Assembly: GCA_035402645.1 (NCBI GenBank)
Contig: DAONDQ010000004.1
Coordinates: 293-64,292 of the forward strand
Direction: 5' to 3'
Origin: Candidatus Cloacimonadota bacterium
GTDB lineage: Bacteria > Cloacimonadota > Cloacimonadia > Cloacimonadales > DAONDQ01
DNA length: 64,000 nt
Each line of letters opens with the position of its first letter. Position 1 is the stretch's first letter. This document shows positions 2,830 through 34,047 of this stretch, piece after piece. Both the position numbers and the translations under genes were made by a program. The notes beneath the pieces were generated by a model. It saw only the letters and a program-made list of their open reading frames with translations, was not told the DNA's origin and searched no databases.

Positions 2830-2837
2830 AACGCACC

Positions 2838-3836
2838 TTATGATAATATTTTAGGGTTAGAATAAGTTGATGGATTAAGTATAGCTGCGAAATTAACTTT
2901 GTTATTTACATCGTTAATTAAAGTTGATTCCGGAATCAGAAGACTATTATTCATCCAATCCAATTCTATCCACTGATCCGGTTCCGTTGTAGAAGCCGAA
3001 ACATAAGCTAATCCATATGTAAGAAACATACATGGATTTGCTCCATTGGGTATTATAAACATTTGGTCTAAAGACATACTTGTTTTCTCAAGAGGAACAG
3101 GAATCTGTAATTTAGATACATCACCTATATAAGAACCAACTATTAGTTCTGCTGAAGGTTCTGTATCTTCACACATAACAAATCCGTAATAGCGAACTCC
3201 GGCAGCATTTACCATTGTACCAGTGCTGATTGATATACCATCCGAAGTAAAACCACTTATGCCGGTTGTTAAATCAGCAGTAGCTGCAAGAAAATAGCTA
3301 GAGTAATAATCAGCATGATTAGATGTCCTAAATATCGCAGGATGTGCACCCGCTCCTTTAATAACAACCACTACTTTTGATTTAGTGGTTAAATCTATTC
3401 CCAATCCAGTTAATGTCCTTGCTAAGCCATTACCATCATAATAAAATGATTGATAACGCATATTAGTGAGAGTTCTTCCATTATGTGCTGAAAGTCCCCA
3501 AAATTTATAATCTACTCCATTGGTATTAACTGATGCATGAGTTCCCAATCTCATTTCATTTCCATTATATGTTGCACCAAATCCACCAAGTATGTTGGCT
3601 ACGGCTGAACCTTTGCATCCGCCTAATATAGTTCCCATTACACCCTGCACGGCAGTATCGGCTTTAGTAACTATGAAATGTGGATCTTGTCCTGTTTGAA
3701 GAATTGAACCGGCTGAATCGCCAACATATGTTCCAAGGAAAAGACTTGCTTTTCCCCAAATGCACTGATTAGCGACCTTAGCGCCATGTCCTAAGATACT
3801 AAAATTTAAAGTACTATTTGAATCATTTTTAATCAT
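2838..3836 (-). CDS. hypothetical tail-fibre-module protein
   Basis: 332-aa ORF with a 4-nt overlap to the upstream ORF, sitting between two fibre genes. No motif recognised. Confidence 0.45.
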   Translation of the reverse strand: MIKNDSNSTLNFSILGHGAKVANQCIWGKASLFLGTYVGDSAGSILQTGQDPHFIVTKADTAVQGVMGTILGGCKGSAVANILGGFGATYNGNEMRLGTHASVNTNGVDYKFWGLSAHNGRTLTNMRYQSFYYDGNGLARTLTGLGIDLTTKSKVVVVIKGAGAHPAIFRTSNHADYYSSYFLAATADLTTGISGFTSDGISISTGTMVNAAGVRYYGFVMCEDTEPSAELIVGSYIGDVSKLQIPVPLEKTSMSLDQMFIIPNGANPCMFLTYGLAYVSASTTEPDQWIELDWMNNSLLIPESTLINDVNNKVNFAAILNPSTYSNPKILS

Positions 3837-4252
3837 TGTATCACCGATATGTTACCAGTTGAATTTATTACTAAAAATGTAGTATCTGCCACAACACAAA
3901 GCAAATCCACAGTATCGCGTTTATATGTAGCCTGTATTGCTCCATTCGTTCCAACAGTGGTTGGATAATCTCCCATAATTATCTGTTGTCCTGCAAACTG
4001 CTGAATACCCCATAATCCTTCTCCCATACCCACTACCTTAAATATAGTTCCTTTAACACATGTTTGGGGAAGTTTAAGACCTTGATAAGTTGCTTTTAAA
4101 ACTAAATGTATAGTATTAGGTGTTAAAATAACAACAGGTACACTATTTACATCTATCATTGATCTGTATCCCACTATACTTTGAAGATAGCGAGCATCCG
4201 GATCAACTTCTTGTCCGGTAGTTACATCCACTAATCCTTTGATGTTGCTCAT
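3833..4252 (-). CDS. small fibre-associated protein with a shared N-terminal docking motif
   Basis: 139 aa. The N-terminus MSNIKGLVDVTTGQEV parallels MANELKGLVNITTGAQV of the 785-aa fibre. Confidence 0.45.
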   Translation of the reverse strand: MSNIKGLVDVTTGQEVDPDARYLQSIVGYRSMIDVNSVPVVILTPNTIHLVLKATYQGLKLPQTCVKGTIFKVVGMGEGLWGIQQFAGQQIIMGDYPTTVGTNGAIQATYKRDTVDLLCVVADTTFLVINSTGNISVIQ

Positions 4253-4261
4253 ATTAGTTCC

Positions 4262-7147: not shown

Positions 7148-7158
7148 GTTAGTTCTCC

Positions 7159-7473
7159 TTATTTATATGTTAGGAGAGCACGATTTGCAGCGATATTGTC
7201 AAATTTACCATCGCCGTCTGCCCATTCCGTTGTGATTACTGAACCAACAGTTGTTGACCGTTGTATCTGCCATACCGCTGCATTGACATTAGAACCACAA
7301 GCAGCCCGACAAGTATAAATGCAAAGAGGATCGGTAGTGTCCGTTATCTCTTTAAGAACGTCTGGCTCAATGATAACGATTTCACGCTTATCACCAGTTT
7401 CGTTCCTCTGCATGTTTCCTTCATCATACGGTCTCGGTAGACCATCGTACACGGGTTTGAATACCTTCTTCAT
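7159..7473 (-). CDS. small virion protein (portal-adjacent) carrying the N-terminal FKPVYD motif
   Basis: 104 aa, MKKVFKPVYDGLPRPYDEG..., with a 4-nt overlap with the portal gene stop. Confidence 0.5.
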   Translation of the reverse strand: MKKVFKPVYDGLPRPYDEGNMQRNETGDKREIVIIEPDVLKEITDTTDPLCIYTCRAACGSNVNAAVWQIQRSTTVGSVITTEWADGDGKFDNIAANRALLTYK

Positions 7474-9230
7474 GACGCACCTCTTGTCTTATTTTTATTA
7501 TTAATTGGATTCATATTTCCATCTTGGGAAATCTTTTTCATATCTTTAGCCATTGTCCCGTCAGCCATCTGCATCATGGCTTTCTTTCCACCTTGCGAAT
7601 TAGGATCGCCTTGAGCAGCTTGTATACGAGCAAGTCTTTCTGCGTGGTCTTGCGAGGCTTTCGCTGCTTCGCCTTTTGGGAAACCAATAGTTTCCGACGC
7701 CGTAGCATTGGAAACAAGTCCTGCTTCTGCAGCCTTCATAATGAATTCCGGATCGGTATTCATAACCTCAGCTGAATCAATTTCCTCGAATATCTCGTCC
7801 ATAGTGGTAGGAGATGCTTTATGCCCGAGAGTAAGTTGAGCAATATCCTTAGCTATGGCTTTCTGATATATCTTACTTGGAACAGTAATCATAACTTTAG
7901 CTTTCTTCATGGCTTCATCAGAACGTTCAGCTTCTGTCTGTAATGTGAACTGGCGAGGATAAGCTACTGTTACGTCATTAGGCTTATTCTCGTACATATG
8001 CCACAGTTCAGCTATGCGACGTTCAGTTGATTCAAGCATCACACCGAGATAAGCCAATCCGCTAACGAGACCTTCGTTGTCTAATTCCTTACTTTCAGCT
8101 GATGCCATACGAGGTCTGATATTATTGAGATTCAGAGAGATGAGTTCGCGTATTTCTTTCTTCATAGCATCCTGTTTCTCCATCGAAACCTTTAGAGGTT
8201 CGGGAGAAGGATGTATGAATCCCGGACGTTCTGAACCGACAGGATATTTACGCCCTTGTGCTGCACCAGTTACGATTTCTTTTGCCTTAGCTTGATCAGC
8301 TTCTTGAGTTGTTCCTTCTACTGGAGCAGTATTCCCACCTAATCCGCCAGTGCTAACCGCTGCAGTTGATGCGGTCTGTGCCTTACGGATGTACTCCATC
8401 ATATCACTTTTTGGATCATACTGTTCAGTATAGAACGGGAAATTTGATTTCGTTATGTAATTGATGTCGGAAGAAGCAATATTAAGAAGAGCAATCTGAT
8501 AATTGGCTATATCTGCCATCAATGCTTGCTTTGTTTCCAGTATGATAAATGGTATTTCTTTGATTTTCAAATCAAAACCGCTTATCTCGTTTCCTGCTTC
8601 ATCATACTCGGTAATGGAGACGCCCGCCGGTGTCCTAACTAAGTATCGGTAGGTTATCTCTATTTCGTCCGGAAGTCCCCACTGTTCATCAACGTCATTA
8701 CCATGACAACGAAGAAGCAGAACCGATAATTTGTTATCTTCGCCATACTGCCAAGAGAGAATATCCTCAGTAGGGAATGTGTATATGTATGGGTGCTTAT
8801 CTCCGAGGGTAGCCATCGTAGGTCCGATGTTCTTGTGCATATCCACGTATATGCCTACGCGAGCCATAGGAAGAAGTTCAGTTAATACGTTCTCGCCAAT
8901 GTAACCATTCATGCTTGAACCGTGTTCATCTACTCCACCAATCAATCCGGCTATGGCTTTCTGATATGATTCAGAACCATTTGTACGACGAATGTCGTTG
9001 GCTCGACTGAATATGGCTTTCCTAACGTCCTCGATAGCAGTTTTTGCGAAAGCCGGAACATAGGTAATAGCCTTCCTAACAAGGAAATCGTTATTCGTTT
9101 CCCTTGTGGAATAGTATTTAAGATACTGATCTATGAAATCGTCGCCACCGGCATATGTGTAACGCCACTTCTTCCACTTGTCATACATGGCTTTATATTC
9201 GGGATGACGAATATCAATCAGCTTACCCAT
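7470..9230 (-). CDS. portal protein
   Basis: 586 aa, starting 1 nt inside the TerL stop. Size, position and the flexible Gly/Lys/Asp-rich C-terminus fit a portal. The call rests on synteny rather than a motif. Confidence 0.7.
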   Translation of the reverse strand: MGKLIDIRHPEYKAMYDKWKKWRYTYAGGDDFIDQYLKYYSTRETNNDFLVRKAITYVPAFAKTAIEDVRKAIFSRANDIRRTNGSESYQKAIAGLIGGVDEHGSSMNGYIGENVLTELLPMARVGIYVDMHKNIGPTMATLGDKHPYIYTFPTEDILSWQYGEDNKLSVLLLRCHGNDVDEQWGLPDEIEITYRYLVRTPAGVSITEYDEAGNEISGFDLKIKEIPFIILETKQALMADIANYQIALLNIASSDINYITKSNFPFYTEQYDPKSDMMEYIRKAQTASTAAVSTGGLGGNTAPVEGTTQEADQAKAKEIVTGAAQGRKYPVGSERPGFIHPSPEPLKVSMEKQDAMKKEIRELISLNLNNIRPRMASAESKELDNEGLVSGLAYLGVMLESTERRIAELWHMYENKPNDVTVAYPRQFTLQTEAERSDEAMKKAKVMITVPSKIYQKAIAKDIAQLTLGHKASPTTMDEIFEEIDSAEVMNTDPEFIMKAAEAGLVSNATASETIGFPKGEAAKASQDHAERLARIQAAQGDPNSQGGKKAMMQMADGTMAKDMKKISQDGNMNPINNKNKTRGAS

Positions 9231-10909
9231 TAGAAAATTCCTCCTATGTCTTTATATCCCGCGGTCTTCGCTGCGAGATTGAAAGCAATCTCCGAGTAAG
9301 TGCGAGAATGAGCAAAATGGTCAGGTCCGACATTCATGAACTTCGCGACAGGATTGCCATTATCATCTTTCTCGTACACTTTAACAACTGCTTTCATATG
9401 TTCTTTGTATTCCATTTCTGCATCCATAGGAATCTTGATGCGTTTGGCACTAAAACGGCTGATTGCCAAATCCATCCACGATGTCCTGTCTACTGTAACC
9501 GTCGGTAGTTCGCTACCAAGTATGGTATCCCTACTCTTTTGGTCGCGTCCATAGAAGCAAGCATAGGCGATGCCAGGAAATCTTGCACAGAACTTGAGAG
9601 ATTCGCGACGTTCGGGATTTGCATCAATAACTACGCAGTTAGTTGCGTACTTCATTACAAACTTGTCCAGTTCATTGAAGTCCACAACTTTACCTTCGAA
9701 AAGTATACGAGGTATGAAGTTCATGTGCATATCTGAATCAGAACTAACCGGTGCGGGTATCCATTCGCATACTTCCACGTTCAGCCACTTGCCAACATCA
9801 ACGCCCATAGTTACAATATGTGAACGAGAAGAGTCTGCCCCGTTCTTGTATGCGGAAGAACAATCTTTGATTTCGGAATCATTAACTCTCGCTCCCTCTA
9901 CAATATGAGGCAGACCTAATTTCGAGTTATAGAACTCCTGTTCATCAGCAGGATTGATCATCGCCTTGAAGTATTGGCTAACGATTTCCGCGGGGCTAAC
10001 TGTGCCCGAGTAAAGTTGATTGATATAGAAACCGCGGGATGTCGCTTGGCTATTCTGCGAAACCCACTCGCCTTTGGCTAGCCAATCGGTCTTCGTTGCA
10101 TGGTCTAATTTGCCCTTGCAGCTCGTACAAATCAGATACGACTCTTTGACGGAAGGGTCGAAGGCATCTTTGCCGCGAATCTCTACGGATTCGGGGAAGG
10201 TGAGTTCCGTTTGTTTCGAGCAGCAAGGGCATGGGAAGAAGAAATGTTCCATCGTGCTCTGCTTATATGGAACATCAATGCCGAAATCCGGCACGGTCGG
10301 AGTGGATACCATCCACATCTGCTTATCCAACTGACCGCTCATACGTTCCCATACAAGCGGTATATGTTCGACGACCATCTTGTCTAACTCGTCAATGGCG
10401 CATCGACCGACAGGTACGGAAACCAAATTAACTTTAGACCGCGAGCCTCTTATGTAGAGATTCGCCGATCCTGCACGTTTGTGCTTCGTGTTCTTCACAT
10501 CCGAGAACATAGTATCTAAATGGGGACTTAATTCGAGGGCTGCATCGAATCGGGATGAACTGAATATCCCTGCGTTATCATCGTTAGGTAGGACATACAA
10601 TACTGATTCACCACGTATGTCGATATTGAAGAACGTCCAGTTAAGGAGTAACTCGGTGTAACCCATCTGCGCTGCTTTACGACCGACGTTGAGTTCAGCT
10701 TTTGAATCATGCATACCGCGAAGCCAAGGATGATGCTTGAAGTTCCATAACCCCGGATATGGCTTGCCCATTACGCGATATTGTTCTGCCCAATTTGAGC
10801 AAGTCGTTAGCGCCGATCTCTTTAGACCGGTTTCAATCTTGTTGAAAAACAACGCGCCGAGATTCTGCTCGGGTTGCTCAACAAGTGCTAAATTTCCCAG
10901 TGTCATCAT
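9230..10909 (-). CDS. terL: terminase large subunit (GpA-like)
   Basis: 559 aa. It has the GpA-type Walker A variant GRKAAQMGYTE, Walker B CAIDELD, and the C-terminal nuclease signatures MGVDVGKW and VVIDANPERRE. Confidence 0.85.
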   Translation of the reverse strand: MMTLGNLALVEQPEQNLGALFFNKIETGLKRSALTTCSNWAEQYRVMGKPYPGLWNFKHHPWLRGMHDSKAELNVGRKAAQMGYTELLLNWTFFNIDIRGESVLYVLPNDDNAGIFSSSRFDAALELSPHLDTMFSDVKNTKHKRAGSANLYIRGSRSKVNLVSVPVGRCAIDELDKMVVEHIPLVWERMSGQLDKQMWMVSTPTVPDFGIDVPYKQSTMEHFFFPCPCCSKQTELTFPESVEIRGKDAFDPSVKESYLICTSCKGKLDHATKTDWLAKGEWVSQNSQATSRGFYINQLYSGTVSPAEIVSQYFKAMINPADEQEFYNSKLGLPHIVEGARVNDSEIKDCSSAYKNGADSSRSHIVTMGVDVGKWLNVEVCEWIPAPVSSDSDMHMNFIPRILFEGKVVDFNELDKFVMKYATNCVVIDANPERRESLKFCARFPGIAYACFYGRDQKSRDTILGSELPTVTVDRTSWMDLAISRFSAKRIKIPMDAEMEYKEHMKAVVKVYEKDDNGNPVAKFMNVGPDHFAHSRTYSEIAFNLAAKTAGYKDIGGIF

Positions 10910-10979: not shown

Positions 10980-11522
10980 TCATGATTCTTTCCTCTCCGT
11001 TAAAGCGACCTGCATTTCGCGCACAATATTCTCAATCGTTTCTTTATCTGTAACGTATTTGTTTATGATTCCGACAATCTGCTCTGCCATCCTTATAACC
11101 GTGGTCTTCTCAATAGTGACGCCCATGTCCTTCTCCAATTTATGGCAACTCGTCACCAGTTTCTCGATCTTCAGTATGAGTTCGCTAATCGCGCCGGATT
11201 GAAGAATCATCTCGCTTGCATTTTCGAAGGCGTTCATCTTCTCTTCGAGAGTCATACGAAGTATAGCAATCTCATCGCGCAAGTCCTTAATGCCACTTGA
11301 TTCCCGCATCTCCGCTGCGCGAGTATGGAACTTCGTCAATCGGTAGTTGCGGAGGTTCTTCTCCTTCGCCTCGGTAGTAGCAGTATCACCGCCGTGTGCC
11401 AAACAATACTTCGAACCCACTTCGGCAACGTTGAGACACTGCCCATGAGCCTGTGAACCGGCTTGACACCGATTAGGATCGCGTTCATCCGTTACCCGTT
11501 TGATTCGTTCTTTATCAATCAT
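10980..11522 (-). CDS. putative terminase small subunit (zinc-ribbon plus coiled coil)
   Basis: 180 aa directly upstream of terL. The N-terminus carries RCQAGSQAHGQCLNVAEVGSKYCLAHGG, a C..C..C.H cluster, followed by a helical domain. The call is by position only. Confidence 0.45.
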   Translation of the reverse strand: MIDKERIKRVTDERDPNRCQAGSQAHGQCLNVAEVGSKYCLAHGGDTATTEAKEKNLRNYRLTKFHTRAAEMRESSGIKDLRDEIAILRMTLEEKMNAFENASEMILQSGAISELILKIEKLVTSCHKLEKDMGVTIEKTTVIRMAEQIVGIINKYVTDKETIENIVREMQVALTERKES

Positions 11523-11559: not shown

Positions 11560-11575
11560 ATGATTATGCAATCAT
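11560..11575 (-). promoter_or_regulatory. 5'-UTR hairpin of the TGATT-N4-AATCA family
   Basis: ATGATT-ATGC-AATCAT, lying between the predicted -10 element (11588-11593) and the terS start. Confidence 0.4.
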
Positions 11576-11587
11576 ACATTTTCACTT

Positions 11588-11616
11588 ACTATACTACAAA
11601 ACACAAATAATAACAA
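11588..11616 (-). promoter_or_regulatory. sigma70-type promoter, copy 1 of 3 (drives the terS-terL-portal-fibre operon)
   Basis: The minus strand reads TTGTTA-17 nt-TATAGT. The same architecture and flanks (GTAGTATAGTA) occur at 33785-33813 and 33933-33961. Confidence 0.55.
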
Positions 11617-11790
11617 GTAGTGCCTTCCCGCGAAAATATAAAAATCATAAATGCCGATTCACTTTTAACATTTGCCAACGACTCGTGTAACAATTACCCA
11701 CTGGCTCTCGGATTGTGCAATCCGTATGAAGTATTAAATACACCATATATGTGAGTTTCGATGGAGGGTTCGGCGGACTTGGAAAATTTC

Positions 11791-11860: not shown

Positions 11861-11934
11861 AAACTATTTTTAAAATATTTTATTTATTTTGCTTGTATAG
11901 TTTGTTTATTTACGAATGACAATTATATTATTAT

Positions 11935-12058
11935 AGGATAATAATATATCCTATGTTCATTGATAATATAATAGTTTGAAGTTTGTAAAAACTGGCACGA
12001 ACGTGCAAAGCTACAAATTAAAACAAAGGTAAATAATAACAAGATAAAAACTTGTTAT
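11935..12058 (+). promoter_or_regulatory. repeated regulatory module, copy A
   Basis: It opens with the near-palindrome AGGATAATAATATATCCT. A 24-nt block ATATATCCTATGTTCATTGATAAT (11944-11967) follows and is identical to 13236-13259. Next comes a nested hairpin at 11982-12017. The module ends with the hairpin ATAACAAG-ATAAAAA-CTTGTTAT (12036-12058). Confidence 0.55.
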
Positions 12059-12065
12059 CCTAATT

Positions 12066-12451
12066 GAAAAATTATTCTATTGTAATCTGTTGTATCGAAA
12101 ATAAAAAGGTGATACAATGAAAATTTTTAATTATCATTTCGTAATTTTTGGTACTAACGAAAAACGCAATTTAATTATTGACGCCTCTTGCGAATCTGAG
12201 GCAATACAAAAATTCAATTGCAAAACAGAATTACAAAATATTAGAATTGAAAAAATATCTTATGCAAATATTCCGAATAGGAAAAACGCTTATGGTGAAT
12301 TCGTTGTTCAAATTTATGTAAATGGGAAAAGACAAAAAGACAACGAATATTTCGCGACGAATTTCGATGACGCTTTAGCGACCGCGCAAAGTATGATAAC
12401 GAATTACTAAAACAAACAAGATACAACAGATTCACAATAGAATAATTTTTC
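12066..12451 (+). repeat. inverted-repeat pair 1, bracketing ORF 12117-12410
   Basis: The left arm 12066-12096 is GAAAAATTATTCTATTGTAATCTGTTGTATC. Its reverse complement matches 12420-12451 at all 31 positions, with one extra C in the right arm. Confidence 0.9.
12117..12410 (+). CDS. hypothetical early protein (97 aa)
   Basis: ORF preceded by the AAAAGGTGATACAATG leader. No motif recognised. Confidence 0.55.
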   Translation: MKIFNYHFVIFGTNEKRNLIIDASCESEAIQKFNCKTELQNIRIEKISYANIPNRKNAYGEFVVQIYVNGKRQKDNEYFATNFDDALATAQSMITNY

Positions 12452-12465
12452 AAACAAAATAAAAA

Positions 12466-12862
12466 TACTGTTGTATATTGTATAGCTTGCCTTTTGAAAA
12501 GGTGATAAAATGGAAATTAAAATTTTAAAGATAGATGGTTTTACTTGCCTTAATTATTTATCCAGTATGGAAACAATACAAGATAGATATTTAATTCAAG
12601 CGGTTATGTCATACGTTATACAACACAAGGAAACAAAAGTAATTGACCATGCATACTGGAAAGCGGAATATCATTTAATAATTGAAAATGCTTTTGAGAT
12701 ATTTTTTATTAAAGAGCAAACAAAGAAAACGGAAATATATTTAAAACTTATTCCGCTTGAAGAAAATTTATTTTTGAATTACGAATATCAAAATAAAATT
12801 CTATTACTTGGAATTGTCAATTAACAAAAGGCAAAAGGCAAGATATACAATATACAACAGTA
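12466..12862 (+). repeat. inverted-repeat pair 2, bracketing ORF 12510-12824
   Basis: The left arm 12466-12495 is TACTGTTGTATATTGTATAGCTTGCCTTTT. Its reverse complement matches 12833-12862 at 29 of 30 positions. Confidence 0.9.
12510..12824 (+). CDS. hypothetical early protein (104 aa)
   Basis: ORF preceded by the AAAAGGTGATAAAATG leader. No motif recognised. Confidence 0.55.
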   Translation: MEIKILKIDGFTCLNYLSSMETIQDRYLIQAVMSYVIQHKETKVIDHAYWKAEYHLIIENAFEIFFIKEQTKKTEIYLKLIPLEENLFLNYEYQNKILLLGIVN

Positions 12863-12864
12863 TA

Positions 12865-13112
12865 GAAAATATTTTTTAGTGCCTCTTGAATAGCCAAAAG
12901 GTGATAACATGAAAAGCGGAATAATGGAATTAATAAACAAACTGGAAAGAGTAAATAGGAAACTAAAAAGGCTTGAAAGCTATTTAAACAAAAGAGGAAA
13001 TGATATTTTACAGGAAAGACATTTTAGACTTTACAAGGAAAAAAGGCTTTTATTAAAGCATATTTCAATTGAACTAAATTAAAAATTTCAAGAGGCACTA
13101 AAAAATATTTTC
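12865..13112 (+). repeat. inverted-repeat pair 3, bracketing ORF 12909-13082
   Basis: The left arm 12865-12890 is GAAAATATTTTTTAGTGCCTCTTGAA. Its reverse complement is identical to 13087-13112 (26/26). Confidence 0.9.
12909..13082 (+). CDS. hypothetical coiled-coil miniprotein (57 aa, below the ORF-track cutoff)
   Basis: The ATG follows an AAAAGGTGATAACATG leader. The product is MKSGIMELINKLERVNRKLKRLESYLNKRGNDILQERHFRLYKEKRLLLKHISIELN. Confidence 0.45.
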   Translation: MKSGIMELINKLERVNRKLKRLESYLNKRGNDILQERHFRLYKEKRLLLKHISIELN

Positions 13113-13130
13113 AATTTATTTTGTAAAGGC

Positions 13131-13177
13131 TTGAAAATAATTTTTAGTATGCTGTAAATTCAGAAAATTATTTTCAA
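13131..13177 (+). terminator. AT-rich hairpin with a T-tract (weak intrinsic terminator, or an 'empty' fourth repeat unit)
   Basis: TTGAAAATAATTTT (13131-13144) and AAAATTATTTTCAA (13164-13177) pair 14/14 around a 19-nt loop. The downstream sequence is TTATTTTTTACTTTT. Confidence 0.45.
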
Positions 13178-13209
13178 TTATTTTTTACTTTTGTTTGAAC
13201 TATTAAATT

Positions 13210-13353
13210 AAGGATATACTATATATAAGGATATTATATATCCTATGTTCATTGATAATTAAATAGTGTTTTGTTTTTCAAAAACGGGATTTTGAAAATC
13301 CAAGCTGAAAACAAAATACAACAGGGAAATTAAAAAAGATAAAAACTTTTTTA
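13210..13353 (+). promoter_or_regulatory. repeated regulatory module, copy B
   Basis: AGGATAT..ATATCCT near-palindromes are followed by the 24-nt block 13236-13259, identical to copy A. A nested hairpin lies at 13268-13319. The module ends with the hairpin TAAAAAAG-ATAAAAA-CTTTTTTA (13331-13353), which has the same loop as copy A on a compensatorily changed stem. Confidence 0.55.
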
Positions 13354-13392
13354 CTGGATTACGATTTCAAATAATCTTAATCAAATTTCATT

Positions 13393-14490
13393 AAATGATT
13401 GAATATTGCTTTTCCGCTTTCCTCAAAAATGAGGTGCGTAAATGATTAATCTTAAAGGTCTTAAAATTCAGGAAATAGCAAAAGACAAGTGCTTTCCTAA
13501 CGTCAAAAATCCGAGAATTGAACTTATCACCTTTGATATAGATGATACGCTCAAAGATGAAAAGACTACAACAGGAATTAAAAAGCCTTGCGTTGTCTTT
13601 GATGATGGTTCGGGAAAATTTGAAATAGGGCAAGGTCACCGCCGTTGGGCAAGTGCCATGAAATTCGAACATATCAAAACTATTCCGTGTATTGTTATTC
13701 CGAAAAGCGGATTAACGGAATTGGATATGTTGGAAATTCTTATGGACCATAATGAGGAAACACCGCTTTCAAAAGCGGAATGTTTCAAGGCAATAAAGGA
13801 ATTTTTCCTTTTGTCTTTCGGTGATTCGGCAATAATAAAGCGTTGTAAAATGCTTCTGAATTCCTCTTTCGGTAGTCCATCGCCGGAAAAGATAAAAGAT
13901 GCTCGAAAAGAGGCGGTCGAAATGCATGAAGATGCCGACCGCGCCGAAGAAAAAGTAATTTTCGAAAAGCACCACGGCACTATTCAGAATTTCCGCCGTC
14001 TTGCCCTTTTGCCTGTTTCCGTTCAAGAGGAATATATAAAGGCATGGCAAGGTCGGAATTCCGACCTAACTCAGAAAGATATTAAAATACTTTCTGAATT
14101 TTGGAACGAACTTGTAAAGGCTAATCCGGAAACAAAGGTTTCCGAACCTCCAAAAGCGTTCGAAGATAAGGTCGAGGAACTAAAGGAAATAAACCGCCAA
14201 CCGGATGATAAGAAAAAATCCGTAAAGCGGTCAAAGTCCGACATAGAAAATATGTCAAAAGGCACTGAAAATGCTATCGTGCGGAAAACTCTTTCATGGG
14301 TTTTAGGTGAAATTACTGATTCCGAGTTGAAAGATTACGTCAAGGCAAAAAGCAACTAACTAACATGGGACGGGAAATCCCATGAATGAGATTTCGTTTT
14401 TATTGATTTTTATTGTAATAGCCTTTATATACTGGCTATGTTTTGAGAAATAAATAAAATCGGAAAGCGGAAAGCAATATTCAATTATTT
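13393..14490 (+). repeat. inverted-repeat pair bracketing the ParB-like gene
   Basis: The left arm 13393-13422 is AAATGATTGAATATTGCTTTTCCGCTTTCC. Its reverse complement matches 14462-14490 (GGAAAGCGGAAAGCAATATTCAATTATTT) with one indel and one mismatch. Confidence 0.85.
13442..14359 (+). CDS. ParB/Srx-fold N-terminal domain protein (paralogue 1)
   Basis: 305 aa. The ParB box-II-like sequence is EIGQGHRRWASAMKFEHIKTIPCIV. The C-terminal LSWVLGEITD matches LAWTIGEISD of ORF 28311-29213. Confidence 0.65.
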   Translation: MINLKGLKIQEIAKDKCFPNVKNPRIELITFDIDDTLKDEKTTTGIKKPCVVFDDGSGKFEIGQGHRRWASAMKFEHIKTIPCIVIPKSGLTELDMLEILMDHNEETPLSKAECFKAIKEFFLLSFGDSAIIKRCKMLLNSSFGSPSPEKIKDARKEAVEMHEDADRAEEKVIFEKHHGTIQNFRRLALLPVSVQEEYIKAWQGRNSDLTQKDIKILSEFWNELVKANPETKVSEPPKAFEDKVEELKEINRQPDDKKKSVKRSKSDIENMSKGTENAIVRKTLSWVLGEITDSELKDYVKAKSN

Positions 14491-14500
14491 AAGGAACAAA

Positions 14501-14737
14501 ATGGATGATATTTATAAAATTGTTTATTCCGATAAATTCGTTAATATGACGAATTTTGATTTGGCAAATTATTGCCGTCAAAACTTCGGCATTTTCTCGG
14601 ATTATTCGGAAAAGCTATTTGCGAATGATTCATACATCAAGTATCTATCTTGCGCGTTTACAGAATTGAAGAAAAATGACTCTGTAAAGGCGCAATATGT
14701 TCGCGAGGAAATTTTAAAACGATTGATGAATCAGTAA
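14501..14737 (+). CDS. hypothetical protein (78 aa)
   Basis: ORF with an AAGGAACAAAATG leader immediately after the right arm of the ParB-gene repeat. Confidence 0.45.
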   Translation: MDDIYKIVYSDKFVNMTNFDLANYCRQNFGIFSDYSEKLFANDSYIKYLSCAFTELKKNDSVKAQYVREEILKRLMNQ

Positions 14738-14751
14738 CAAAGGGGAAAATT

Positions 14752-14934
14752 ATGATGAAAAGTACAACAGAAACTCTTTTGGAATACTTCTTTGATTCGC
14801 TTATTATGCATGACTATGACAACGCCGACGACATCATCGAAGATTTCCGAAATTTTCCCGATTTTTACAAAGAATTGAATCGTATGTATACCGAAGCAAC
14901 AAAGGAAAGGAATCCGGTACAATGGAAAAGCTAA
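14752..14934 (+). CDS. hypothetical protein (60 aa)
   Basis: ORF preceded by GGGGAAAATTATG, in an operon with its neighbours. Confidence 0.4.
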   Translation: MMKSTTETLLEYFFDSLIMHDYDNADDIIEDFRNFPDFYKELNRMYTEATKERNPVQWKS

Positions 14935-15098
14935 TTGAATTGCACACGATGTATTGCTTGGATGCCATCGTCGACGGAGATTTCAAAAGTTACAAGAAAA
15001 GCTATCTGTATCTTGCGGAATTGAGCAGGAAATTCACTAAACTGCACAAATTCATCGTCATGATTCTCGAATCATTAGAAGAAAGGAGGATGGCATGA
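14922..15098 (+). CDS. hypothetical protein (58 aa, below the ORF-track cutoff)
   Basis: The ATG at 14922 overlaps the end of the previous ORF. The product begins MEKLIELHTMYCLDAIVDGDFKSYKK and the stop is at 15096-15098. The terminator follows 35 nt later. Confidence 0.4.
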   Translation: MEKLIELHTMYCLDAIVDGDFKSYKKSYLYLAELSRKFTKLHKFIVMILESLEERRMA

Positions 15099-15133
15099 AG
15101 TAAACAAGTAAAATTAGTCCTTTTTGATCATGA

Positions 15134-15170
15134 ATGGCGCATAATTTACCCCGATTATGCGCCATTTTTC
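15134..15170 (+). terminator. rho-independent terminator ending the plus-strand early block
   Basis: A perfect 12-bp stem, ATGGCGCATAAT / ATTATGCGCCAT, closes an 8-nt loop and is followed by TTTTC. Confidence 0.8.
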
Positions 15171-15460
15171 GTGCCTGTAAACCGATGACGGCAGAATCAC
15201 CACATAAGGCGCTGATTCTCCGCCCTGCATCCATTTCCGCCTGTAAAAGCGCTAAAAAGCATTAATCATGATTTGCTGATCTTAGCGAATCATAAAATAC
15301 AATGTATCGCGAAAACTGGCTTCGTGGTAAATTCCGGATTGATTCTTCGGTACTCCGAAGATTACATGATTTAGTGCCAAGATTAACAATGTTAGTTTTA
15401 CGAGTTTGGATTTGGTCAGTAAAGGGAAGTCGGATTCAGAATCATTTTGAGGCTGGATTC

Positions 15461-15502
15461 TAACTTACTTACTAATATACTTACTAACTAACTAACTAAC
15501 TT
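15461..15502. repeat. TAACTTAC / CTAA short tandem repeats
   Basis: TAACTTACTTACTAATATACTTACTAACTAACTAACTAACTT. TAACTTAC is the reverse complement of the GTAAGTTA iterons at 33901-33924. Confidence 0.8.
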
Positions 15503-15642
15503 CGTCAAATATGATAAGCATACTCCCCTATATATGTACATATACTGGTCTCCTGTCAGTAACTCCGTAAAGCAAGCCTAAGTTTTCAGCCAGTACGGAC
15601 ACGTAAAAGCCTGTAAAATCGAAATTTAAGCGGTTACTACGC

Positions 15643-15694
15643 AATTAAAGGGCATTTCCCGAAGGTTTTGTAAAACCGACTCCGAGAAATGCCC
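15643..15694 (-). terminator. terminator-like hairpin ending the minus-strand replication block
   Basis: On the minus strand, GGGCATTTC ... GAAATGCCC forms a 9-bp stem. It contains an inner GGTTTT/AAAACC stem and is followed by TTTAATT. It lies 38 nt after the nuclease gene stop. Confidence 0.55.
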
Positions 15695-15731
15695 ATTGGT
15701 AACTTTTGTCAATGAAATGTGTAAACTGAAT

Positions 15732-22534: not shown

Positions 22535-22963
22535 TTAGATAGTTTTAAAGACCTTCCCATAAGTTATGAACTCCTCTTTTGTAATCTCCTTAACGCCCGT
22601 AATCTCAAGTATCGCCTCACCAACATCGACTTTGGGTAGGCTACCAAGACTTTCGAGTTCAGTGTAGTCGTGTACTGATTCTCTCCAGTTTTCAATGGCG
22701 TCTCCGCAATCCATAGCTTTGGTAATATAGAACACGTCGTGTGAACTGTTTTCGTTTTCATTTGGTGTATTCTGTTCGGTGATTAAATAGAACTTCTTAG
22801 GAGGCACTGCGATTACTGAATCGAGCTTCCAAGTTTCCTCATATATCTTTTCGCACTTGGTACACTTCAACTGACGAGTCATGGAGTCCTCTTCGTAATG
22901 ATCATACTCGGATAGGACTTCCAGTTCATCGTTGCCACATTCGCATTTTTCTAATCTTTTCAT
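22535..22963 (-). CDS. zinc-ribbon protein
   Basis: The start is moved to the ATG at 22963 (MKRLEKCECGN), which is preceded by GGAGGA and forms a TAATG overlap. Motif CECG...CTKC. Confidence 0.45.
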   Translation of the reverse strand: MKRLEKCECGNDELEVLSEYDHYEEDSMTRQLKCTKCEKIYEETWKLDSVIAVPPKKFYLITEQNTPNENENSSHDVFYITKAMDCGDAIENWRESVHDYTELESLGSLPKVDVGEAILEITGVKEITKEEFITYGKVFKTI

Positions 22964-23292
22964 TATTCCTCCAACAGTTCGATGAAGTTGCAATCATAGA
23001 GGCTTTCGTACATCTCCGGTGTGATGTCCATCACGTGCATGAGAAGTACCACAGTTAAATCATCTTCGTAGTTGCCTGTTGGCTTTCCTTCGGAATCCAT
23101 TATGGGAGATAGGTGTTGGTTGTATGCGTTCCATAATCCACGCCAATCATCCTTCTTACAAATCATGTGTTCGGTGACCTCAAGCGGAACTAAATCAGCG
23201 TTCTCCTGTGCTGAGTTTGTCGGCTTGACCATGTGATTCTTGAATCGGTTCTTGATTGTCAATAGCTTAGCCATTTGAATCATCCCTTTCAT
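22963..23292 (-). CDS. hypothetical protein (first gene after the operator region)
   Basis: 109-aa ORF. The alternative start MAKLL at 23274 has the better SD spacing. Confidence 0.45.
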   Translation of the reverse strand: MKGMIQMAKLLTIKNRFKNHMVKPTNSAQENADLVPLEVTEHMICKKDDWRGLWNAYNQHLSPIMDSEGKPTGNYEDDLTVVLLMHVMDITPEMYESLYDCNFIELLEE

Positions 23293-23357
23293 TTTGATTT
23301 TGATTTACGATAATCATAATCTTGTTTCCGACCTTCCATTAGTATAACGAAAATTCG

Positions 23358-23371
23358 TTACAAAATTGTAA
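23358..23371. promoter_or_regulatory. operator O1, TTACAAAATTGTAA
   Basis: Inverted half-sites TTACAA and TTGTAA are separated by AA. It abuts a second palindrome of the same design, AACGAAAATTCGTT, at 23346-23359. Confidence 0.6.
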
Positions 23372-23468
23372 TTAACCTTTATAATTTTTCCATATTTCGA
23401 CATAATATAATATAAAGCTATATTCAATATATACAAGCGGAAAACAAAAATAATTGAAAAATAATTAG

Positions 23469-23482
23469 TTACAAAATTGTAA
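23469..23482. promoter_or_regulatory. operator O2, (AG)TTACAAAATTGTAA(CT)
   Basis: Identical 14-mer. Here the symmetry extends to 18 bp. Confidence 0.6.
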
Positions 23483-23499
23483 CTACATTTTACAACGAA

Positions 23500-23513
23500 T
23501 TACAAAATTGTAA
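23500..23513. promoter_or_regulatory. operator O3, TTACAAAATTGTAA
   Basis: Identical 14-mer, 31 bp centre-to-centre from O2. Confidence 0.6.
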
Positions 23514-23537
23514 GATTCAAGAATCCAATAATCATAA

Positions 23538-24044
23538 TCAATGTTCGTGCATCCCATTGATGTGTAAATCAAACAACTCCAAAGATGTTTGGCATTTACT
23601 ACCAAAGATATAGAAAATATCAAAATCATTATACAAGTAATCGATTGCCAAATCCGTATATATTTTCCCCATTGGATCATATATGGATTTGCTTCGCCAA
23701 TCCCAAGCGATAGCATGATGACCATTCGTTAGTACAATGTCATGATGCTCAAAGTACATCTTCACACTATAGAATGGCTTGAATGATTTAATATCTTTCA
23801 TGTCATGGCTTATATCCAAACTCTTAGGCAACTCCATCACAGTAAAACCCCTTGAGTTTGCTAACCAAATCAATTCAGCAGAATGGAAGCCACGATAGCA
23901 CCGAGGAACTTCTAGGTTGGTAAAAGCTATCTCAGTGCCATCGTGACCTAAAATCTTAAACACGTGTTCTACATCTACGCCCATGCACATAGCAAAGGCA
24001 GTAGCAAGACAACTGGCTCGATTAGGTTGTTTAATCAGATTCAT
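23538..24044 (-). CDS. papain-fold cysteine peptidase (C39-like)
   Basis: QPNRASCLATAFAMCMG has Gln six residues before the candidate catalytic Cys. GHHAIAWD and IYDP are candidate His and Asp residues. The start is moved to 24044 (ATGA overlap with the upstream stop). Confidence 0.45.
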   Translation of the reverse strand: MNLIKQPNRASCLATAFAMCMGVDVEHVFKILGHDGTEIAFTNLEVPRCYRGFHSAELIWLANSRGFTVMELPKSLDISHDMKDIKSFKPFYSVKMYFEHHDIVLTNGHHAIAWDWRSKSIYDPMGKIYTDLAIDYLYNDFDIFYIFGSKCQTSLELFDLHINGMHEH

Positions 24045-24394
24045 GGTTTCATTATGCTCAAGTAACAATGCCAATTAGGTGCGCCAAACAGTTTCCTATA
24101 CTCGTCATCCGTACCCGCAGTAAGTATCCAAATACCCACTCCGGCAGCTGAGAATTTAGGGAAGTCAATCAACTGTTGGCTTGTGAATCTACTGCCTTTC
24201 ATGTTTGGTAATTTGACCTCTATCCATCGTATACCATACTTTTGATGGGCAGTAAACAGATCGGGGAATCCGGCTTGATACATATTGCCGTGAGTAGGCT
24301 TGACAAACCAATCACGGCACTTCATGTAATCAGAGATGGCTTTCTGAACTTTAGCCTCCGGACTATTTTCGCCGTATTCTTTAGCTTTAAACAT
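24041..24394 (-). CDS. VRR-NUC domain nuclease
   Basis: GFPDLF ... IRWIEVKLPNMKGSRFTSQQ, a PD...E-x-K core followed by a conserved Q. Confidence 0.65.
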   Translation of the reverse strand: MFKAKEYGENSPEAKVQKAISDYMKCRDWFVKPTHGNMYQAGFPDLFTAHQKYGIRWIEVKLPNMKGSRFTSQQLIDFPKFSAAGVGIWILTAGTDDEYRKLFGAPNWHCYLSIMKP

Positions 24395-28310: not shown

Positions 28311-29213
28311 TTACTGTTCTGAATCACTGTTATCACCCACCAGTTGAGATGTCGTGCTTATACACTGTGATTCCGGCATTACGAACTTGATGTTATTCTC
28401 CTTCGCGACGTGTTCGACAGTGAGAAGCATATCGTAATCACTTATCTCACCTATTGTCCATGCAAGGGCACGAGTAGCAAGTCCGTTACCAAATGTTTCA
28501 CGAATCAAAGTCTGAAGTTCCAGTACCTCGGACACGTGCCTCTGCCTCTTGGCATCTTTCTTTGCTACTCTAATGGTCATCTTCTTTCCATTAGCAGTGC
28601 CTTTAGTTCCCTTGTATTTGTGAACCAACTGAACCATGTCATCGATTGATCCGCCGTTCTTTCTAATAGTATACAGGTCACGAATCATGGTCTGATTGAT
28701 ATTACCAAGTCTTGCTTCTTCTTGGAACTCTTTAGGTAATTGGAGAAGCATACACCGAACCTGTACCCAACCACGAGTTGAGGACAACTTGTCTGCTATC
28801 TCCTGTTGAGTCATTCCTAAGTCGATGAACTTGCCTAATGCATTAGTTTCATCCATGATGTTTAAATCTGCTCTCTTGATGTTCTCCGCGAGATTTATGA
28901 ATCGCGCTTCCACATCACTAAGGTCATCACGTATGAAGCAAGGTATGGTCTCGGCTTCATTTACTTGATGCGCTTTGAATCGACGATGACCTGCAACGAT
29001 TATATACTTCTTACCATCTTTAGGCTCTTTCAATGTCCTAACGATGATTGGTGCGTGTAGACCGTTCTTTTTTATATCGTCAGCTATATCCACCACACTC
29101 AAAGCACTGAAACTACCACGACAGTTGAAATCCGGATCAGCGAATATTTCCTTCACCGGAATCTGATGTACTTGATAGCGTTCCTTCATGTTTTCCAACG
29201 ATAAATCTGCCAT
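28311..29213 (-). CDS. ParB/Srx-fold N-terminal domain protein (paralogue 2)
   Basis: YIIVAGHRRFKAHQVNEAETIPCFI is like ParB box II (GxRRxxA), followed by an HTH-like MTQQEIADKLSSTRGWV. Confidence 0.7.
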   Translation of the reverse strand: MADLSLENMKERYQVHQIPVKEIFADPDFNCRGSFSALSVVDIADDIKKNGLHAPIIVRTLKEPKDGKKYIIVAGHRRFKAHQVNEAETIPCFIRDDLSDVEARFINLAENIKRADLNIMDETNALGKFIDLGMTQQEIADKLSSTRGWVQVRCMLLQLPKEFQEEARLGNINQTMIRDLYTIRKNGGSIDDMVQLVHKYKGTKGTANGKKMTIRVAKKDAKRQRHVSEVLELQTLIRETFGNGLATRALAWTIGEISDYDMLLTVEHVAKENNIKFVMPESQCISTTSQLVGDNSDSEQ

Positions 29214-32663: not shown

Positions 32664-33665
32664 TTATGCGATCTTGATTCCGACGGAAGCGGCATCCTTC
32701 TTAGCCTGCTCTGCTTCCTTCTGAAGTTTGGCAATCTTTGCCTCGGCGTTCTCGTACTTCTTCTGAACGGTTTCCTTGATACGCCTTTCCTTCGCTTCGG
32801 CGAGAGCCTTCTTACGGGCTTCGTACTTGGCGAGAGATTCGGCAATCGCGGCTTTGTCCATTTTCAGAACCCAGCGAATCGCAAGTGCGAATCCATCGGC
32901 AGGAGTACCGGCGTTTTCCTCTTTGCAGAGTTTCGCGCCAATAGCCGGTGATTCATATTCACCCTTGATTTCGGCAGGTTTCCTCATGACAGGAATTGCC
33001 ACGAATTCTTCCGGCTGACCGTCCTTGCCTTCGCGACGTGCCTTGTCGAGTTCCTTCTTCCTTGATTCAACAAGGGGAACGAATTCAACGGGAGGAAGAG
33101 TCATGGCTCTGTCAAGGAAAGCTGCGATTTCGCCTTCGGGTAGCTTGCTGAGTGCATACGCATTACCGAGTTTGATTTCACCGCTATCAACGGAGTCCTG
33201 TACTTCCTTGGGAAGAGTAAGGAGACCAAAGCGTTCTGAAATCCATGCCGTTGATTTGCAAATCTTCTGAGCGAGATCGGCAACGGTCATGAGAGGGTAG
33301 ACGGAAAGCATACGCTTGAGACCTTTGGCGTACTCAACGGGCTTTGTGTCGACCTTCTGAATATTCGCAACAATCTGAGTTTCAAGAGCTTCTGCCTCTG
33401 AAACATCGAGGATCTGAACAGGTATCTCAATCAAACCTGCCCTCTTTGCGCCTGTATAGCGATGGAGACCATCAACGATACAGAATTTCCCCGCATTTTC
33501 GCCGTCGCGGAGTTCACGGACGCTAATGGGATTTACGATTCCCTTAGCCTTAATCGATTCTGCAATCTCCTGGAACTGTTCTGATTCCTCATTTACTGAG
33601 CGCAGAGCGACGGGAGATTCGACGATCTGATCCAGTTTGAGTGTCGCAAGTTTTGACATTTGCAA
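32664..33665 (-). CDS. ParB/Srx-fold N-terminal domain protein (paralogue 3) with a Lys/Ala/Glu-rich C-terminal tail
   Basis: CIVDGLHRYTGAKRAGLIEIPVQIL (ParB box II-like) is followed by an HTH-like MTVADLAQKICKSTAWISERF. This is the first gene of the minus-strand block. Confidence 0.65.
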   Translation of the reverse strand: MQMSKLATLKLDQIVESPVALRSVNEESEQFQEIAESIKAKGIVNPISVRELRDGENAGKFCIVDGLHRYTGAKRAGLIEIPVQILDVSEAEALETQIVANIQKVDTKPVEYAKGLKRMLSVYPLMTVADLAQKICKSTAWISERFGLLTLPKEVQDSVDSGEIKLGNAYALSKLPEGEIAAFLDRAMTLPPVEFVPLVESRKKELDKARREGKDGQPEEFVAIPVMRKPAEIKGEYESPAIGAKLCKEENAGTPADGFALAIRWVLKMDKAAIAESLAKYEARKKALAEAKERRIKETVQKKYENAEAKIAKLQKEAEQAKKDAASVGIKIA

Positions 33666-33784
33666 CTCCTTTCTCGTGATTGTTCAATCATTGCACTTTT
33701 AAGGAAACAATAATCATAATCATCAAAACAGAATTCCGGCAATCTTCTGATTGTGATTATCAATATAGTTCCTTCCGTCAATGT

Positions 33785-33813
33785 ACTATACTACAATATA
33801 TAAGAAAAAACAA
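33785..33813 (-). promoter_or_regulatory. sigma70-type promoter, copy 2 of 3 (drives the minus-strand replication block)
   Basis: The minus strand reads TTGTTT-17 nt-TATAGT, inside the left arm of the inverted repeat. Confidence 0.55.
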
Positions 33814-33900
33814 GTAAGGTTACAAACTTACTAAAAAACAGTTTGAAATACGTTTATATATATGGTATATATTACAATATTTAGCAATCTATAAATATTT

Positions 33901-33924
33901 GTAAGTTAGTAAGTTAGTAAGTTA
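33901..33924 (+). repeat. three tandem GTAAGTTA iterons
   Basis: GTAAGTTAGTAAGTTAGTAAGTTA. A fourth, inverted copy (AACTTAC) lies near 33825. Confidence 0.85.
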
Positions 33925-33932
33925 AATAATAC

Positions 33933-33961
33933 TTGTTTTTTACCTTATATTGTAGTATAGT
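33933..33961 (+). promoter_or_regulatory. sigma70-type promoter, copy 3 of 3 (drives the primase-methylase block)
   Basis: TTGTTT-17 nt-TATAGT, inside the right arm of the inverted repeat. Confidence 0.55.
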
Positions 33962-34047
33962 ACATTGTAAGGAATTTACCCGTTGCAGAATCACAATCAT
34001 AAGCATTTCAAAATTGATTGTGATTATTTAAAAAGATTGGCTAATCA

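Follow-up and report, generated by a model that had tools for sequence, protein, structure and literature searches.

The closest described counterparts of the sites considered here are those predicted for DVU1949, a sigma-54 activator of the single-component type with a regulon of nitrogen metabolism and transport genes (PMC4641369). About 100 sites have been predicted for this protein in Desulfovibrionales with the consensus TTTACAATATTGTAAA, and the published list includes ATTACAAAATTGTAAT, GTTACATTTTTGTAAT, ATTACATTTTTGTAAC, and TATACAATTTTGTAAC (Kazakov et al. 2015, PMC4641369, Additional file 4). Many of these sites are paired at 30–32 bp, regions with at least three sites are also present, and they are located 80–400 bp upstream of genes such as amt, glnA, and gltB, usually with a −24/−12 promoter (PMC4641369). 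Here, we analyze a 64,000-nucleotide stretch of contig DAONDQ010000004.1 (the window), which derives from an uncultured phage and in which the same 16-bp palindrome, the same pairing, and three sites in one region are found in a gap between two genes. In contrast with the bacterial sites, which adjoin nitrogen genes, the phage gap has no −24/−12 promoter and the phage genes are unrelated to nitrogen. Judged from their sequence and conservation, the phage boxes are genuine, conserved regulatory elements at the promoter of a sigma-factor operon. They most likely bind a host nitrogen-regulon enhancer-binding protein of the sigma-54 type (the DVU1949 kind) that would modulate sigma-70 promoters, a reading to which we give about an even chance.

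The gap (23293–23537) lies between genes at 23538..24044/24074 and 22963..23274, both on the minus strand, and is read on that strand throughout. The 14-bp box TTACAAAATTGTAA occurs in exactly three copies, O1 (23358–23371), O2 (23469–23482), and O3 (23500–23513), against 0.01 expected per window from shuffles, and no fourth copy is present in the window at two or fewer mismatches. An earlier note on this DNA had described these three positions, the distance of 31 bp between O2 and O3, the pentamer ACGAA directly before O3 (23495–23499), and the location of the gap within a minus-strand block, all of which proved exact. The gap was compared with those of the closest relatives by DNA polymerase, namely L002, L003/L004, L007–L009, and L090–L093, and its central features are as follows, with box scores taken from a position weight matrix (PWM).

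23500..23513, minus strand: box O3, which reads TTACAATTTTGTAA on the transcribed minus strand; centre at about −104.5 from the predicted start site; 16.0 bits
23469..23482, minus strand: box O2, which extends to the 16-bp palindrome GTTACAATTTTGTAAC; centre at about −73.5; 16.5 bits
23437..23468, minus strand: UP-like, A/T-rich block ctaattatttttcaattatttttgttttccgc that separates O2 from the −35 hexamer, kept in L007, L003, and L091
23431..23436, minus strand: −35 hexamer TTGTAT of the promoter P_gap; TTGTAT in L007 and L003, CTGTAT in L091
23409..23414, minus strand: −10 hexamer TATATT of P_gap; TATATT in L091, TGaTATACT in L007, TGaTATAGT in L003
23358..23371, minus strand: box O1, specific to the window; occupies about +31 to +45 of the transcribed leader; 16.6 bits
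23476..23505, minus strand: possible second, weaker sigma-70-type promoter from a promoter scan, TTGTAA (in O3, 23505..23500)-18 nt-TACAAT (in O2, 23481..23476)

The match to the nitrogen-regulon motif is close in both sequence and spacing. The PWM was built from 101 published DVU1949 sites, which themselves have a median score of 12.5 bits and a 90th percentile of 15.5 bits. At 16.0–16.6 bits, the window boxes exceed the 90th percentile of the training sites and represent the top three PWM matches genome-wide; when the gap was shuffled at constant composition, even one site of such a score was obtained in 0.2% of the trials (p 0.002). All three boxes conform to the 16-bp palindrome TTTACAnnnnTGTAAA of DVU1949-type enhancers. 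Boxes in the relatives score 16.6 and 15.2 bits in L007, 15.9 bits in L003, and 16.0 and 12.4 bits in L091, and no site in the box-less relatives exceeds 12.3 bits. The tandem arrangement characteristic of DVU1949-type enhancers, 30–32 bp or approximately three helical turns, is present in the O3–O2 pair, which is spaced 31 bp start to start, and recurs with equal spacing in L007 and L091.

A scan of one genome per species, covering 185,579 species, for two exact boxes 10–40 nt apart revealed 14 stretches, five of which are in metagenome-assembled genomes (MAGs) of Lentisphaerota/Victivallales. The two boxes are 30–31 bp apart start to start, as in the phage, in five of the 14 stretches. The genes beside the bacterial pairs include those for glutamate synthase (gltB, L101), amt-glnK (L102), amt and icd (L108), gdhA together with a GAF-AAA-HTH_8 activator gene (L099), and asparagine synthase (asnB, L110). 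Two perfect, divergent sigma-54 promoters, TGGCACGCTTTTTGCT and similar, flank each box pair at L101 (194–393, a Victivallales MAG) and L109 (5626–5962, an Akkermansiaceae MAG), and one sigma-54 promoter with a single mismatch is present at L108. With the L101 and L109 loci, the predicted DVU1949-type motif reaches far outside Desulfovibrionales. Four to five near-optimal boxes are also present in L001 (IMGVR_UViG_3300030708_000834), an unrelated viral contig that has no protein in common with the window within the 13 kb of L001 that were compared. Its 12100–12300 region contains GTTACAAAATTGTAAT and GTTACAAAATTGTTAT in two tandem 46-bp units, GTTACATTTTTGTAAC past a hairpin, and repeated TATGACAnnTGTCATA palindromes. 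Among further viral candidates, the matches in L111 and L113 were set aside as chance occurrences in coding sequence, and that in L112 has a different context. A literature search yielded no nitrogen-related paper that contains the exact 14-mer.

The boxes are part of a layout that is conserved among relatives of the phage. After the orthologue of the upstream gene (gpX), the L007, L003/L004, and L091 sequences share GATTATGATTA(A/T), one or two boxes, an A/T-rich block, a promoter, and GATTATGATTAT(CG), with the A/T-rich block following the pattern ttcaattatttttgttttccc across the cassettes of the relatives. L007 carries GTTACAAAATTGTAAT and TTACAATATTGTTA, 31 bp apart, L091 carries TTACAATTTTGTAA and TTACAATTATGTAT, also 31 bp apart, and L003/L004 have one box only, GTTACATTTTTGTAAC; a counterpart of O3 is kept in L091, L007, and L003. 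The −35 and −10 hexamers of P_gap are 16 nt apart in the window, L007, L003, and L091, consistent with a sigma-70-type promoter (TTGTAT-16-TATAnT); in L007 and L003 the −10 element is of the extended type (TGa). The start site would be near 23402, placed 7 nt past the −10 hexamer; given this position, the box centres are at approximately −74 and −105 in the window and L007 and at approximately −95 in L003. With offsets of 10, 21, and 31 bp between them, the box centres would be on the same helix face. P_gap lies 32 nt downstream of O2, and its hexamers are free of boxes. The only promoter that O3 and O2 overlap is the weak TTGTAA-18-TACAAT one, an arrangement that is made of the boxes themselves and recurs in L007 and L091; O1 falls at +31 to +45.

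O1 sits in a leader segment of approximately 26 nt that is missing from the closest relative, L091, and by this comparison is a recent, lineage-specific addition outside the conserved design. The same window-specific insertion carries a second palindrome, which the earlier note had described as abutting O1 and of identical design:

23346–23359, no strand assigned: second palindrome AACGAAAATTCGTT, overlapping O1 by 2 nt

The palindrome is indeed present, with an overlap rather than an abutment, as a single exact copy; its two matches against 1.02 expected are not significant on their own. It was rejected as a further box on the basis of a PWM score below 5 bits, its single copy, and its absence from the relatives (L091).

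The gap is best explained as a conserved regulatory cassette that heads an operon with the phage sigma-like gene. In order of transcription, the cassette comprises GATTATGATTAT where gpX ends, a pair of boxes spaced 31 bp, the UP-like block, and TTGTAT-16-TATATT, followed by a third box in the leader (in this phage only) and a second GATTATGATTAT before the first gene. Dimers of the host enhancer-binding protein would occupy the tandem sites three helical turns apart and modulate, probably dampen, the sigma-70 promoters that these sites overlap or adjoin, and O1 in the leader may act as an additional roadblock or loop. The bound protein would not be a classical enhancer-binding activator in this setting because the gap has no sigma-54 promoter. 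The operon, and perhaps the later programme through the sigma-like gene, would in this way become responsive to the nitrogen status of the host. If a host nitrogen regulator does read the boxes, they would represent a non-cyanophage case of a developmental (sigma-factor) operon wired to host nutrient status, would put sigma-54 activator sites to use in a setting without a sigma-54 promoter, and would hint at the host of a large uncultured phage family. The phage boxes also serve as an independent check on a regulon motif that has so far rested on comparative genomics.

Several observations weigh against a host nitrogen regulator. The DVU1949 motif is a comparative-genomics prediction and not a footprint. 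A GG-N10-GC sigma-54 promoter is absent from both strands of the gap and from within 300 bp in L007 and L091; the boxes are not classified as a working sigma-54 enhancer because this promoter, the defining partner of an enhancer, was not found. L002, L090, and L008 do without the boxes, which shows that members of the clade can dispense with them, and no connection with nitrogen is visible in the downstream genes. Unrelated regulators can also share a sequence, since the HprR/CusR box used in E. coli experiments has exactly this 14-mer as its core (PMC9302797).

The earlier note had interpreted the gap as a multi-operator switch for the downstream gene run and had proposed the small zinc-ribbon proteins as binders. 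Its operator switch appears right in kind, in that the boxes are conserved cis-regulatory sites upstream of the promoter of the sigma-gene run; on the other hand, there is no evidence for a phage repressor, the boxes do not overlap the main promoter, and O1 is lineage-specific and outside the conserved design. The likely binder is a host nitrogen-regulon activator and not a phage repressor or zinc-ribbon protein. A host factor is favored because the box sequence and the tandem spacing match the bacterial nitrogen-regulon motif.

ParB-family helix-turn-helix (HTH) dimers bind 13–16-bp palindromes, and KorB acts at palindromic OB sites near promoters. The boxes could accordingly be operators for a phage regulator, either a ParB_N+HTH_ParB protein acting in the manner of KorB or an unrecognised small DNA-binding protein, with the bacterial likeness a coincidence; we regard this as somewhat unlikely, with an appreciable chance of being correct. 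When the early, replication, and small-gene regions were scanned with Pfam and PHROGs, with the large structural genes at 472–10909 and 40768–63986 lying outside the scan, there was no HTH repressor, in agreement with the earlier note that no classical HTH repressor lies beside the gap, and no phage-encoded Fis-type HTH or AAA+ activator. The only candidates detected in the scanned regions are a third ParB_N protein, the sigma-like protein, and two further proteins, which are the only recognisable sequence-specific DNA binders besides the sigma-like protein:

32664..33665: ParB_N+HTH_ParB protein (Pfam/PHROGs)
28311..29213: second ParB_N+HTH_ParB protein (Pfam/PHROGs)

Many small phage genes without an assignable function and the clade-specific clustered palindromes of other family members, such as TCTCATTTTTGAGA twice in L009 and TGATAATAATATCA five times in L070, are also consistent with a phage binder. 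However, both ParB paralogues are kept in the box-less L002 at 52–61% identity without visible covariation, and the ParB alignments show no telling difference. The genes adjacent to the gap are acidic and differ among the box-carrying phages, and a phage binder leaves unexplained both the identity in sequence and 30–31-bp spacing with bacterial nitrogen-gene enhancers and the box cluster in the unrelated L001. An adjacent or divergent repressor gene, as expected of a lambda-like switch, was not found, the flanking genes having no HTH match. A search for the binder by phyletic pattern yielded clusters common to the box-carrying relatives that are spurious or uninformative, and an association test over 86 loci is confounded by phylogeny.

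There is a slim chance that the boxes are instead 'copper boxes', bound by a CusR/HprR/CopR-type response regulator (OmpR family) of the host that activates a sigma-70 promoter from upstream. The E. coli CusR/HprR box CATTACAAAATTGTAATG has exactly this 14-mer at its core (PMC9302797, PMC3465305), and the string TTACAAnnTTGTAA occurs in the text of a paper on a copper-responsive regulatory system of Legionella (PMC6989116). The E. coli example is a single box of an OmpR-family regulator at copper and oxidative-stress genes and is without a 31-bp tandem (PMC9302797, PMC3465305). The window boxes agree with TTACAAnnTTGTAA, their core being identical to that of the E. coli box, and their distance of −74/−105 from a sigma-70 promoter would be suitable for activation from upstream. 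In the Legionella study, TTACAAnnTTGTAA is said to act as a copper box, and to our knowledge copper boxes are generally single. A 30–32-bp tandem is, by contrast, typical of the DVU1949 regulon list, and the exact bacterial pairs adjoin nitrogen genes and sigma-54 promoters, not copper genes; no copper or oxidative-stress genes were found in the phage. It is very improbable that the boxes are a true sigma-54 enhancer for a distant or non-canonical promoter, for which one candidate is TGGCACTGAGATAGCT (23940..23925, minus strand), approximately 410 nt upstream inside gpX. This sequence is on the right strand and is the only one-mismatch consensus match among the matches listed (200 of 261), and enhancers can act from afar and from downstream (cited in PMC4641369). 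Nonetheless, approximately two one-mismatch matches are expected by chance (an estimate), matches with three or fewer mismatches are not enriched genome-wide (261 versus 232), and TGGCACTGAGATAGCT encodes the invariant peptide DGTEIA, with a perfect match in the box-less L002 and none in the box-bearing L003. A non-transcriptional gap, either a replication origin with iterons around the A/T-rich stretch or an RNA structure or terminator, is extremely unlikely. The gap centre is A/T-rich, the RNA fold of the box region is modestly more stable than that of shuffles (z = −2.2), and the presence of GATTATGATTAT in both the gap and the primase-proximal divergent region recalls the ori/crr arrangement of phage P4. 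Opposed to such a role are the clear conserved promoter in the gap centre, the lack of any terminator-like site in the gap (promoter/terminator scan), Rfam match, or tRNA, the uncompensated changes in the degenerate second boxes of L007 and L091, which argue against an RNA hairpin, and the palindromic nature of the boxes, which are not direct iterons.

A bolder version of the favored host-regulator reading, which we consider unlikely to hold as a whole, is that the phage lineage copied the nitrogen sigma-54 activator boxes of its host and, in the absence of a sigma-54 promoter, employs them to occlude sigma-70 promoters or to titrate the regulator there, and thereby gates its own sigma-factor operon by nitrogen supply. 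In this version, the cassette is bounded by a second, phage-specific motif system (GATTATGATTAT at regulatory regions and 83 GATT-N4-AATC palindromes genome-wide, perhaps read by the ParB-like proteins), and the gap would then be a meeting point of a host nutrient signal and a genome-wide phage DNA-binding system.

At E. coli glnA, NtrC activates the sigma-54 promoter glnAp2 and represses the overlapping sigma-70 promoter glnAp1. The phage gap resembles this arrangement in that two activator sites approximately three helical turns apart overlap a sigma-70-type promoter (the TTGTAA-18-TACAAT of O3 and O2), and differs from it in the sequence of the sites, in the lack of a downstream sigma-54 promoter, and in having its stronger conserved promoter farther downstream, clear of the sites. 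By analogy, repression of glnAp1 by NtrC is a possible parallel for the action of the boxes. Cyanophage genomes carry Pho boxes as well as sites for NtcA, the global nitrogen regulator of the host; the NtcA sites, located in regulatory regions, are thought to make phage expression dependent on the nitrogen stress of the host (Sullivan et al. 2010, PMC3037559). The feature shared with the window would be the presence, in a phage regulatory region, of sites for a nitrogen regulator of the host. However, the cyanophage regulator is the CRP-type NtcA, which recognises GTA-N8-TAC, whereas the window has a box of the sigma-54 activator type; cyanophage genomes carry one to 16 scattered sites each, and the window has one cluster of three at a single promoter. 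Several near-identical palindromes at the promoter of a developmental gene block are also found in lambda-type switches, from which the phage gap differs by the lack of an adjacent or recognisable repressor gene, by uncovered main hexamers, and by the 31-bp spacing.

The ends of the gap are marked by a different element. The earlier note had described copies of the 12-mer ATAATCATAATC as flanking the gap at about 23311 and 23529 and as recurring at 33709; these copies are real, their actual positions being 23310, 23528, and 33710, and they belong to a separate, more widely conserved motif system. When one mismatch is tolerated, ATAATCATAATC occurs six times (1.09 expected), in every case in an intergenic regulatory region, and when read on the gene strand it corresponds to GATTATGATTAT, which contains direct GATT repeats. 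The pattern GATTNNGATTAT also has six copies (0.33 expected), all in regulatory regions. Copies of the GATTATGATTAT type are present at 23310, 23528, 33710, 33749, 34016, and 13371, that is, at the edges of the gap, in the ParB and primase leaders, and at 13371, and the element is kept in corresponding places in L002, L003, and L007. Three features of the gap belong to this system or to the related GATT palindromes.

23528..23539, minus strand: upstream GATTATGATTAT, overlapping the stop codon of gpX; in the same place in L002, L003, L007, and L090, and TGATTGTGATTGT in L091
23514..23525, no strand assigned: GATT-N4-AATC palindrome GATTCAAGAATC, directly abutting O3
23310..23321, minus strand: downstream GATTATGATTAT(CG) in the leader, approximately 36 nt before the start codon

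The upstream GATTATGATTAT is a DNA- or RNA-level signal and not a coding one because it is in another frame in L003. The downstream copy reads GATTATGATTATCG(A/T)AA in L002, L003, and L007 and GATTATGATTAT in L091 and L090. In L008, which has no gpX orthologue, the gap that follows the C8 gene contains GATTATGATTATC twice, at a distance of 27 bp. Further positions of GATTATGATTAT in relatives are 3607–3981 and 15039–15188 in L002 and 2952–3297 and 16910–17084 in L007. The ParB and primase leaders contain inverted pairs of GATTATGATTAT approximately 20–70 nt past the predicted start sites, of which one pair covaries and two have a mismatch; these pairs may be either an RNA hairpin or a protein site. 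L002 and L090 have a different central part of the cassette, which carries a four-codon mini-ORF (open reading frame). This mini-ORF, MKKF, is kept in the box-less L002 (15155–15180) and L090 (approximately 3615–3645) with a strong ribosome site, and its TGA stop codon forms the first three bases of TGATTATGATTAT.

The ATAATCATAATC element belongs to a larger feature of the genome, the interrupted palindrome GATT-N4-AATC. This palindrome has 83 copies in the window against 2.45 expected, and the other spacings from N0 to N10 have zero to four copies. Additional examples are located at 33678–33689, 34035–34046, 11562–11573, and 11711–11722. The palindromes are mostly intragenic, occur in all three frames with a median spacing of approximately 610 bp, and are denser at 16–36 kb. 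Their positions turn over between relatives and their density is kept. Close relatives share the N4 class, and distant family members have N5, N4 together with N5, N3, or none; L010 carries 45 N5-type sites per 22 kb. No published description of GATT-type palindromes was found in a literature search, and the ParB-like proteins and a D12-class methyltransferase are candidate readers. GATT-N4/N5-AATC palindromes are a strong signal across many family members and merit a study of their own. Other exact clustered 14-bp palindromes are found elsewhere in the family, namely two copies of TCTCATTTTTGAGA in L009 (3669–3702), two copies of TGAGTTTGAACTCA in L035 (2223–2268), and five copies of TGATAATAATATCA in L070 (911–1341 and 18222–18535).

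By DNA comparison, the phage has no close relative among GenBank phages, and its polymerase is at most 28% identical to GenBank phage matches; more than 2000 relatives of this polymerase are present in metagenomes. Contig L094 (its positions 8711–10001), from another sample, bridges the window end to the window start, with approximately 423 nt missing from the window. Because L094 joins both ends, the window is an almost complete genome of approximately 64.4 kb that is circular or circularly permuted. A divergent early region is located between a DUF5906 primase and a ParB-like gene, followed by a helicase, the second ParB-like gene, the family-A DNA polymerase, small genes, gpX, and the gap, downstream of which are small acidic and zinc-ribbon genes, the sigma-like gene, and a ligase. 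The genes nearest to the gap and the sigma-like gene are the following.

23538..24074, minus strand: gpX, the upstream gene, 168–178 aa, with a conserved Cys/His pattern and without a family match
22963..23274, minus strand: gene that opens the downstream operon; acidic product of 103 aa (pI 4.7), without a family match and with an orthologue in L091
20813..21475, minus strand: sigma-factor-like gene in the downstream gene run, PHROG 351 (E = 1.6e-7) with a weak Sigma70_r4 match

Orthology with L091 suggests that translation of the first downstream gene starts at the ATG at 23274 rather than at 23292. The two genes downstream of the gap are acidic (pI 4.6–4.7), and the first of them differs among the box-carrying relatives. 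The sigma-like gene is kept in L002, L003, L007, and L008. Scans of IMG/VR and JGI with gpX as the query gave no useful result. In some close relatives, the DNA polymerase is split by an intein with a LAGLIDADG endonuclease (L003 10001–13180, L007 10001–13285).

Other elements of the window include a promoter-like element of 33–38 nt, TACTTGTTnTT...TTGTAGTATAGTA (TTGTTn-17-TATAGT), in three copies, at 11587–11619 (minus strand), 33779–33816 (minus strand), and 33930–33967 (plus strand). Two of these are divergent and precede the ParB and primase genes, and one precedes the structural-gene block that starts at 11522. The divergent primase/ParB region at 33840–33930, with its (GTAAGTTA)x3 tandem repeats and with a TA-rich stretch between two promoters, is a candidate replication origin. 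A low-GC island at approximately 11900–15700 (approximately 0.30 versus 0.40) consists of plus-strand genes with strong AAAAGGTGATA ribosome sites, holds the third ParB_N protein (13442..14359), and contains, at 11932 and 13224, copies of a 60-nt element that carries the palindrome ATAGGATAnnATATATCCTAT. It looks like a recent acquisition because GATT-N4-AATC palindromes are scarce there, with two in 12–16 kb.

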